Assembly: GCF_030013595.1 (NCBI RefSeq)
Contig: NZ_CP122768.1
Length of the DNA: 64,000 nt
Strand: one strand, 5' to 3'
From: Escherichia coli
GTDB taxonomy: Bacteria > Pseudomonadota > Gammaproteobacteria > Enterobacterales > Enterobacteriaceae
In this document: positions 54,001 through 57,000 of the stretch, piece after piece
Layout: every line of letters starts with the position of its first letter
Position numbering within the stretch: the first letter of the stretch is position 1
Position numbers: made by a program

Positions 54001-57000
54001 ATCTTTCGCGCCGATATGTGTAACGCTGACGTAAAATTGGGCGATCTGCTTATTCATGAAGGATCGGCGAAGGATGCGCAGAAATTCGCAGCCAAAGTCT
54101 TTCATGCCGATAAAACCTATTTTGTACTGAACGGCACATCGGCAGCGAATAAAGTGGTGACGAATGCGCTGTTAACGCGTGGCGATCTGGTGCTCTTCGA
54201 CCGTAACAACCATAAGTCGAATCATCACGGCGCGCTGATTCAGGCGGGGGCGACGCCGGTCTATCTGGAAGCTTCACGTAACCCGTTTGGTTTCATTGGC
54301 GGTATTGATGCGCACTGTTTTAATGAAGAGTATCTGCGCCAGCAAATTCGCGACGTTGCGCCAGAAAAAGCGGAGTTGCCGCGCCCGTTTCGCCTGGCGA
54401 TTATTCAGTTGGGAACCTATGACGGCACTGTCTATAACGCCCGTCAGGTGGTCGATACCGTTGGGCATCTGTGTGATTACATTCTGTTTGATTCCGCGTG
54501 GGTCGGTTACGAACAGTTTATCCCGATGATGGCGGATAGCTCGCCGCTGCTGTTAGAACTTAACGAAAACGATCCGGGGATCTTTGTGACCCAGTCGGTG
54601 CACAAACAGCAGGCGGGATTCTCACAGACGTCGCAGATCCATAAAAAAGATAACCATATCCGTGGACAGGCACGTTTTTGCCCGCATAAGCGGTTGAATA
54701 ATGCCTTTATGCTCCATGCTTCTACCAGCCCGTTCTATCCGCTGTTCGCCGCGCTGGACGTTAACGCCAAAATTCATGAAGGAGAGAGTGGGCGTCGGCT
54801 GTGGGCTGAGTGCGTTGAGATAGGGATTGAAGCGCGCAAGGCTATTCTTGCGCACTGTAAGCTGTTCCGCCCGTTTATCCCGCCCGTTGTTGATGGCAAA
54901 TTGTGGCAGGATTATCCGACGTCAGTGTTAGCCAGCGACCGCCGTTTTTTCAGTTTTGAGCCGGGGGCGAAGTGGCACGGCTTTGAAGGATATGCCGCGG
55001 ATCAGTATTTTGTTGATCCGTGCAAGCTGTTACTCACTACACCAGGTATTAATGCCGAAACTGGCGAATATAGCGACTTTGGCGTTCCGGCGACGATTCT
55101 GGCGCACTATCTGCGTGAGAACGGCATTGTGCCGGAGAAGTGCGATCTCAATTCCATTCTGTTCTTATTAACGCCGGCGGAAAGCCACGAGAAGCTGGCA
55201 CAACTGGTGGCGATGCTGGCGCAATTTGAACAGCATATTGAGGATGACTCGCCGCTGGTTGAGGTGTTGCCGAGCGTTTATAACAAATATCCGGTGCGCT
55301 ATCGCGACTACACCCTGCGCCAGTTGTGTCAGGAGATGCACGATCTGTATGTCAGTTTCGACGTCAAAGACCTACAAAAAGCGATGTTCCGCCAGCAGAG
55401 TTTCCCGTCAGTGGTGATGAATCCCCAGGATGCGCATAGCGCTTATATTCGCGGTGAAGTGGAGTTGGTGCGGATTCGTGATGCCGAAGGGCGAATTGCG
55501 GCAGAAGGGGCGTAGCCTTATCCACCAGGCGTGCTTTGCGTGGTACCCGGAGAAGTCTGGGGTGGGGCGGTTCAGCGTTATTTCCTTGCGCTGGAAGAAG
55601 GGGTGAATTTATTGCCGGGATTTTCGCCGGAGCTGCAAGGTGTCTATAGCGAAACCGATGCGGATGGCATGAAACGATTGTACGGTTATGTGTTGAAGTA
55701 AGAAAAAAACGGGTCACCTTCTGGCGACCCGTTTTTCTTTGCGTAATTAGTGGCTCACCGTCTGTGTGCCTGTCGGGACACGAACGTGTTTATATTTGAA
55801 CATCGCCATGAACGCGAAGGCCAGAACCACGGAGTAACCAGCGAAAATCAACCATACGGTCTGCCAGTCGGTAATGCCGTTTTGGGTGTACATCTCAACA
55901 ACTTTACCGCTCACGATGCCGCCAAGGATACAGCCGAAGCCGTTAGTCATCATCAGGAACATCCCCTGCGCACTGGCGCGAATTGCCGGGCTAACTTCTT
56001 TTTCGACAAACACCGAACCAGAGATGTTGAAGAAGTCGAATGCGCAACCGTAAACGATCATCGACAGTACCAGCAGTACAGTACCGAACGGAGTCGGGTC
56101 GCCGTAAGCAAACAGCGCAAAACGCAGGATCCACGCCACAATACTGATCATCATTACGTTCTTAATACCGTAGCGGCTTAAGAAGAACGGGATAGTCAGA
56201 ATGAACAGGGTTTCAGAAATCTGCGAAATCGACATGATGATTGACGCATGCTGCACAATAAAGCTGCTGGCAAACATCGGATCTTTGTCGAAGCTGTGCA
56301 GGAAGGTGTTACCGAACATGTTGGTAATCTGCAGTTCCGCGCCCAGCAGCATTGAGAAGATGAAGAAGATTGCCATACGCTTGTTTTTAAACAGCGCGAA
56401 TGCATCGAGGCCCAGCAGGGTTGTCCAGCTCTGATTCGCTTGCTGTTTAGCAACCGGAATATGCGGCAGAGTCAGGGTAAACAGAACCAGAATGGCGGAA
56501 AGTGCTGCGCCAATATACAGCTGCATGTGGCTTAATTCGAAGCCAGACAGGCTCACCACCCACATTGCCATGATAAAGCCGATGGTGCCCCAGATACGGA
56601 TTGGCGGGAAGTCAGTAACGATATCCATCCCGGCATTTTGCAGGCGATAGTAAGAGATGGTGTTGATTAACCCAAGCGTTGGCATATAAGCAAACGAGTT
56701 AATCAATATCACAAGGAACATCGCTTCCGGCGTCGTGACCTGTGCCGCCATGAACAGCGTGATAGCGCCAATGGTGTGGCAAATGGCATAGACCCATTTC
56801 GCACTTAACCATTTGTCGGCCACAATCCCCAGCAGCGCAGGCATAAAGACCGCGGCGATACCCAGTGAACTATAAACTGCGCCAATAGAAGCACCGTCAA
56901 ACTTCAGGGTAACAAACATATAGGAGCCGAGGGTCGTCAGCCAACTTCCCCACAGACAGAACTGCAGAAAAGAGAGGATTTTCAGCTGCAGCTTAAGATT

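Follow-up and report, generated by a model that had tools for sequence, protein, structure and literature searches.

The speC locus and its in-frame amber codon

The window, by which we mean the whole 64,000-nucleotide stretch of E. coli DNA analyzed here, carries speC, the gene for the constitutive ornithine decarboxylase, within the local gene order pheV-yqgA-speC-nupG-mltC-yggX-mutY that is also found in K-12. Orthology to E. coli speC is indicated by the yqgA and nupG flanks together with a score of 1291.9 bits against the NCBIfam ornithine decarboxylase model (cut-off 794), while the SpeF-specific NCBIfam model stays below its own cut-off on the same product. The features at this locus are as follows.

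53566–55701, + strand: speC (constitutive ornithine decarboxylase), 711 codons with a stop at codon 650; no indels relative to K-12 b2965 and VCSW7
53566–55515, + strand: shortened speC frame of 649 sense codons plus TAG; an exact-sequence look-up returns STE04797.1 / UniRef100_A0A376HHF6
55513–55515, + strand: amber codon, Leu650 TTG to TAG, the mutated base being 55514 (T>A)
55516–55701, + strand: orphaned speC tail of 61 codons plus the natural TAA, encoding the PYPPGV...PGFSPELQGVY portion of the C-terminal domain
55703–55739, no strand assigned: imperfect hairpin CGGGTCACC-TTCT-GGCGACCCG between the convergent speC and nupG, read by eye

The gene begins with ATG at 53566 and has the same length, 2,136 nt with zero indels, as speC of K-12 MG1655 (b2965) and of strain VCSW7, but the uninterrupted frame of ~711 codons that characterizes the SpeC family is broken at codon 650 by a TAG in the same frame as the start. 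Following the TAG, sense codons continue from 55516 to 55698 (PYPPGVLCVV...LYGYVLK) and end at a TAA at 55699–55701. The original prediction had described an in-frame TAG at 55513–55515 followed by 61 further codons to a TAA at 55699; both the coordinates and the frame are borne out, and our translation of the tail matches the predicted one exactly. The immediate context of the amber codon is GCG TAG CCT, which places a C directly 3' of the stop.

Replacement of TTG with TAG at codon 650 is the sole disabling change in speC when compared with K-12 and VCSW7. Over the 711 positions compared the encoded protein is 98.5% identical to that of K-12, and aside from the amber codon the gene differs from that of VCSW7 by 17 synonymous and 3 missense changes, which suggests that purifying selection acted on speC up to a very recent time.

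Downstream of speC, nupG occupies 55750–57003 on the opposite strand. The hairpin that lies between the two genes is flanked by an A-run and a T-run and is probably a bidirectional terminator; it went unreported by a simple terminator scan as a result of one A.C mismatch in its stem. Since speC is monocistronic, faces a convergent neighbor and has no same-strand gene downstream, polar effects of the amber codon are not expected.

Distribution and age of the amber allele

The 649-residue product is already public (STE04797.1 / A0A376HHF6) and is listed in 39 index blocks. From these blocks we read 24 contigs and compared eight loci with the window, each of them from a different sample: GCA_021649415.1, GCA_012931135.1, ERR4421113, GCA_900448395.1 (UFZA01), GCA_021887745.1, GCA_021646965.1, GCA_002968075.1 and SRR10970594. 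Two of the eight assemblies were built from raw sequencing runs. The TAG is present in 8/8 loci, which differ from the window by 0–3 SNPs and at most one indel over 6–20 kb, and since their SNPs are not identical these loci are not copies of a single record. The original prediction had allowed that the TAG might be a base-call error, and this explanation fails on finding the same codon in eight separately assembled samples. An error of base calling or assembly that is confined to the window sequence would draw some support from the window-only loss of one nucleotide from an A6 run in mutY (described below), which suggests that this assembly may contain some errors. However, the TAG is a substitution and not a homopolymer indel, it recurs in eight other independent assemblies, two of them from raw runs, and the differing SNPs of these assemblies argue against a shared erroneous reference as its source, such that we regard the probability of an error as practically negligible.

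One of the eight loci, GCA_900448395.1, is the UFZA01 genome of E. coli NCTC10082, a strain with an LT-IIa variant enterotoxin that was described in a letter (PMC7590859). The heat-labile enterotoxin operon of NCTC10082 is called novel in that report (PMC7590859), and the speC-amber clone may be a type II ETEC lineage. This letter on the LT-IIa variant toxin was the single publication that our literature search found for NCTC10082/UFZA01, and the same search found no paper describing a speC amber in E. coli or a decarboxylase phenotype of NCTC10082.

Among complete genomes the allele was not encountered. An 81-mer with the TAG at its center matched 0/5,400 complete RefSeq E. coli genomes, with all of the best matches being 80/81, and the clone itself is absent from 5,426 complete RefSeq genomes, for which the best identity is 99.1% in the speC region, 98.6% in the left 21 kb of the window and 98.7% in the island described below. 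Only a single small E. coli clone, to which NCTC10082 belongs, carries the TAG, and there the codon is fixed. This is the pattern of a lineage-fixed pseudogene, with a stop where orthologues have a sense codon and with the same lesion across isolates.

We looked up the exact 711-residue protein with Leu650 restored and found it in four assemblies (GCA_018579305.1, GCA_033745935.1, ERR4843674 and SRR23081642). The speC genes of these four differ from that of the window at a single position, 55514. This base is A in the window and in the eight amber loci (L003–L005 and L014–L018) and T in K-12, VCSW7 and the four intact-speC sisters (L019–L022), and the statement in the original prediction that a TTG leucine codon occupies this site in related strains was therefore correct for K-12, VCSW7 and all four of the near-identical sisters. 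When two of these, L019 and L021, were compared with the window over 8.7–11.7 kb, they differed only at 55514, 58550, 59230 and 60967, with L019 differing additionally at a few bases of the pheV/island junction. At 58550 it is the sisters that carry the derived state (YggX E25D), with the window keeping the K-12 state, and the changes at 59230 and 60967 are private to the window. One mutation thus parts the amber clade from its intact relatives across the compared stretch. The proposal that this is a recent nonsense change agrees with these results, as the amber allele lies one base from an extant ancestral allele and speC is otherwise nucleotide-identical in four assemblies.

Members of the amber clade differ from one another by about 1–3 SNPs per 10–20 kb. 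As a rough estimate from these few SNPs, the amber codon may have arisen decades to a few centuries ago, an age that fits with the allele being common to an old culture-collection strain and to sequencing runs made recently. The number of substitutions expected in 186 nt at that age is far below one. Neutral decay has not had time to reach the tail, which is why it is intact, and an intact tail that is explained by recency carries no information on readthrough.

Predicted effect on SpeC and alternative explanations

In the 649-residue product Pfam detects OKR_DC_1_N at residues 4–95, OKR_DC_1 at 101–543 and OKR_DC_1_C at 568–648, all above their cut-offs and in the order found in the SpeC family of wing-domain Orn-Lys-Arg decarboxylases (fold-type I PLP). 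The orthologous locus and synteny are shared with wild type E. coli SpeC (b2965, 711 aa), and the three-domain architecture is shared with both b2965 and the Lactobacillus 30a enzyme (1ORD). Unlike in either of these, the window frame is broken at codon 650 and its product lacks the last 62 residues. The OKR_DC_1_C match spans just model positions 1–79 of 132, with the stop falling at approximately position 80, and with the amber codon ~40% of the C-terminal domain is lost, the PYPPG motif being part of it. By itself, the 61-residue tail matches the Pfam model PF03711 (OKR_DC_1_C) over positions 82–131 of 132 with E=3e-15, and it is identical to 1ORD at 28 of 53 aligned positions with LPYPPGV and PGF.PE.QGVY kept, in support of the claim that it is the genuine SpeC C-terminus. 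A PDB search returned 18 distinct homologous sequences comprised of 16 full-length decarboxylases and two matches to the core domain only. All 16 full-length solved homologues (ODC, AdiA, LdcI and LdcC) align through at least query residue 693, and no solved homologue ends naturally near residue 650.

Part of the tail (55540–55701) is annotated publicly as a separate 53-residue ORF, STE04798.1, which is the next gene after STE04797.1 and which was also seen in the gene calls of two amber loci, L003 and L014. A split enzyme of two polypeptides, made by re-initiation at GTG 55531 or 55540, is unlikely from reading the sequence, since there is no convincing Shine-Dalgarno and the resulting fragment would be without LPYPPG. 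The two ORFs annotated as ornithine decarboxylase, STE04797.1 and STE04798.1, are best treated as one pseudogene.

We propose that a recent T>A nonsense mutation (Leu650stop) has become fixed in this clone and has most likely left a truncated and inactive SpeC and abolished the constitutive route from ornithine to putrescine. Direct observation covers the base change and the fact that it is genuine, its being fixed in the clone, the survival of the ancestral allele and how conserved the missing segment is. The steps leading to the present state would have been a spontaneous T>A transversion at 55514 in a recent ancestor of the window strain and NCTC10082, with fixation of the allele in the clone afterwards. 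Translation would then stop after Ala649 to give a product without its last 62 residues, and this truncated SpeC would most likely fail to fold or to assemble the active dimer. In the paralogue LdcI, which is comprised of a wing (residues 1–129), a core (130–563) and a C-terminal domain (564–715), the active site is buried at the dimer interface and is formed mainly by the core domains with the C-terminal domains contributing (PMC4832331). Cutting a conserved folded domain at 60% of its length most likely destabilizes the protein, from which we infer that constitutive ornithine decarboxylase activity is lost; judged from its sequence, loss of SpeC function is likely. E. coli also obtains putrescine from arginine via SpeA and SpeB and through the acid-inducible SpeF, and speC mutants of E. 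coli are viable. We infer that the loss of SpeC would be compensated metabolically, with the arginine route (SpeA/SpeB) providing putrescine together with inducible SpeF, where the clone has it.

It could instead be argued that the 649-residue SpeC is still an active ornithine decarboxylase and that the change is nearly silent phenotypically. The shortened product does keep the wing, the linker, the PLP-binding core and the initial 60% of the C-terminal part, and with the PLP core domain (residues 101–543) left whole by the amber codon some residual activity of the truncated enzyme is possible. Persistence of the allele in several diverged isolates is also what would be expected of a hypomorphic but useful allele. 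Nevertheless, few parts of the family are as conserved as the segment that is lost, as the similarity of the tail to the Firmicute enzyme and its Pfam match indicate, it is present in every one of the full-length solved decarboxylase homologues, and partial removal of a folded domain would usually destabilize a protein. We therefore consider a truncated enzyme that is still active to be very unlikely.

A different alternative is that some readthrough of the amber codon takes place, through a suppressor tRNA encoded elsewhere in the genome or through near-cognate tRNAs acting at TAG-C, such that speC is a hypomorph whose expression possibly depends on polyamines. A C directly after TAG makes for relatively weak termination, and a small amount of full-length SpeC made by near-cognate readthrough is possible on this account. 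The tail is intact and in frame, and the allele persists in a clone with several diverged members. For amber codons to be translated efficiently in E. coli in vivo, polyamines are reportedly needed (Tabor & Tabor 1982, as cited in PMC10372455), so that a polyamine-dependent trickle of SpeC is conceivable if speculative. Against this reading, recency alone accounts for the tail, given that the 2,136 nt show no further difference from the intact sisters. The sole tRNA gene in the 64-kb window is a normal pheV with anticodon GAA, and comparison of the window with 48 reference genes turned up no other in-frame stop, although this is a small sample. The stop is not conserved beyond the clone, with its nearest sisters having TTG and none of the complete genomes searched having the TAG 81-mer, and it is therefore not an evolved site of programmed recoding. 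Finally, readthrough of an ornithine decarboxylase gene that is stimulated by polyamines would constitute positive rather than homeostatic feedback. On balance a leaky or suppressor-dependent allele appears quite unlikely. The amber codon at position 33 of rpoS in supE K-12 laboratory lineages is a natural amber allele that does depend on suppression. As in speC, the rpoS TAG lies in frame in a gene that is otherwise intact, and the frame downstream of it is kept; unlike in the rpoS/supE case, the young age of the mutation accounts for the intact speC tail, and of the two only rpoS/supE has a known suppressor tRNA. We conclude that the speC amber is most likely an ordinary recent gene inactivation, with no new decoding mechanism involved.

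The closest known parallel is found in Salmonella. In clade I of S. Cerro ST367, a clonal cattle-associated clade, a single-base premature stop at residue 573 of SpeC is fixed, and speC is also disrupted in S. Typhi and S. Gallinarum (PMC9748477). When tested, the ornithine decarboxylase phenotype of S. Cerro was retained, which the authors credit to SpeF (PMC9748477). The two cases are alike in that a single-base nonsense change in the C-terminal third of speC is restricted to one clade and became fixed as that clade expanded clonally, with SpeF and the arginine route as back-up. They are unlike in species, in the codon affected (650 in E. coli versus 573) and in the base change, and it is the S. 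Cerro clade that has been dated, linked to cattle and assayed for its phenotype. The present allele is an E. coli addition to the recurrent disruptions of speC reported in Salmonella. A reading in which loss or attenuation of SpeC was not neutral but a convergent adaptation of host-restricted enteric clones, or in which a low, polyamine-dependent trickle of full-length product from the weak TAG-C stop retunes the putrescine supply, strikes us as unlikely; were the former true, an E. coli clone with type II heat-labile enterotoxin would join S. Cerro, S. Typhi and S. Gallinarum, for which such a step has been proposed.

With recent inactivation as the preferred explanation, the culture-collection strain NCTC10082 represents a natural E. 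coli clone that is probably without constitutive ornithine decarboxylase. Together with its near-isogenic wild relatives that have the intact allele, this clone forms a natural pair for addressing the role of SpeC outside the laboratory. The importance of the finding is modest.

Disrupted mutY and the pheV island

The window contains a further frame disruption in mutY, downstream of nupG.

58652–59703, − strand: mutY, with a 1-nt deletion at 59230 that shortens an A6 run to A5 on the coding strand (run 59226–59231)

The deletion shifts the mutY frame at approximately codon 157 and yields a 166-residue product. In all 8 sister assemblies with sequence at this position, of which six have the speC amber and two an intact speC, mutY is intact (350 aa); either the lesion belongs to the window strain alone, or it is an assembly error in a homopolymer. 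A mutY mutator was considered as a cause of the amber codon and rejected, as every other amber-clade member examined has intact mutY and as loss of MutY leaves a G:C>T:A signature, which a T>A change at an A:T pair does not fit. With mutY intact in the other amber members, the amber codon is older than, and independent of, the mutY lesion. None of the few private SNPs observed is G:C>T:A.

An identical 166-residue MutY product turns up in 152 index blocks. Eight loci with this product that we read (L006–L013) share just 98.2–98.8% identity with the window and carry an intact speC, and on both counts they were rejected as sister lineages and represent unrelated lineages. The shared lesion in the mutY A-run reflects a hotspot of repeated slippage or else an assembly artefact that recurs.

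Between yghD and pheV the window carries an island of ~30 kb, at about 21.9–52.2 kb, with the following features.

27029–29872, − strand: Ag43
30247–31115, − strand: GTPase-family gene with a 1-nt deletion at 30452, CTGGCGGC to CTGGGGC relative to the reference island
39325–47717: BREX-1 remnant, with brxL and pglZ intact
50822–52087, − strand: P4-type integrase

Additional cargo of the island includes a CbtA/YeeU toxin-antitoxin pair, an antirestriction gene, a DUF932 gene and hha. The deletion at 30452 is a −1 frameshift that splits the 290-residue frame of the GTPase-family gene. In the BREX-1 remnant, pglX is without ~381 N-terminal codons, the remainder being 67% identical to the reference, and it adjoins an IS5-family transposase at 46749–47717. 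The window remnant has no brxA, brxB or brxC, and with these three genes missing the BREX system is presumably inactive. Beside the integrase, the segment 48101–50500 encodes an OMP beta-barrel protein of 246 residues with a weak Adr-like match and a 499-residue sulfatase-family protein that is phosphoethanolamine-transferase-like but far below the CptA, EptA and MCR cut-offs.

The intact-speC sister L019 is without the whole island, such that yghD adjoins pheV. Its identity to the window is 99.94% to the right of pheV (52277–64000) and only 96.3% to the left, from gspE to yghD (13138–21878), and this drop in identity at pheV points to a recombination boundary at the tRNA/island site.
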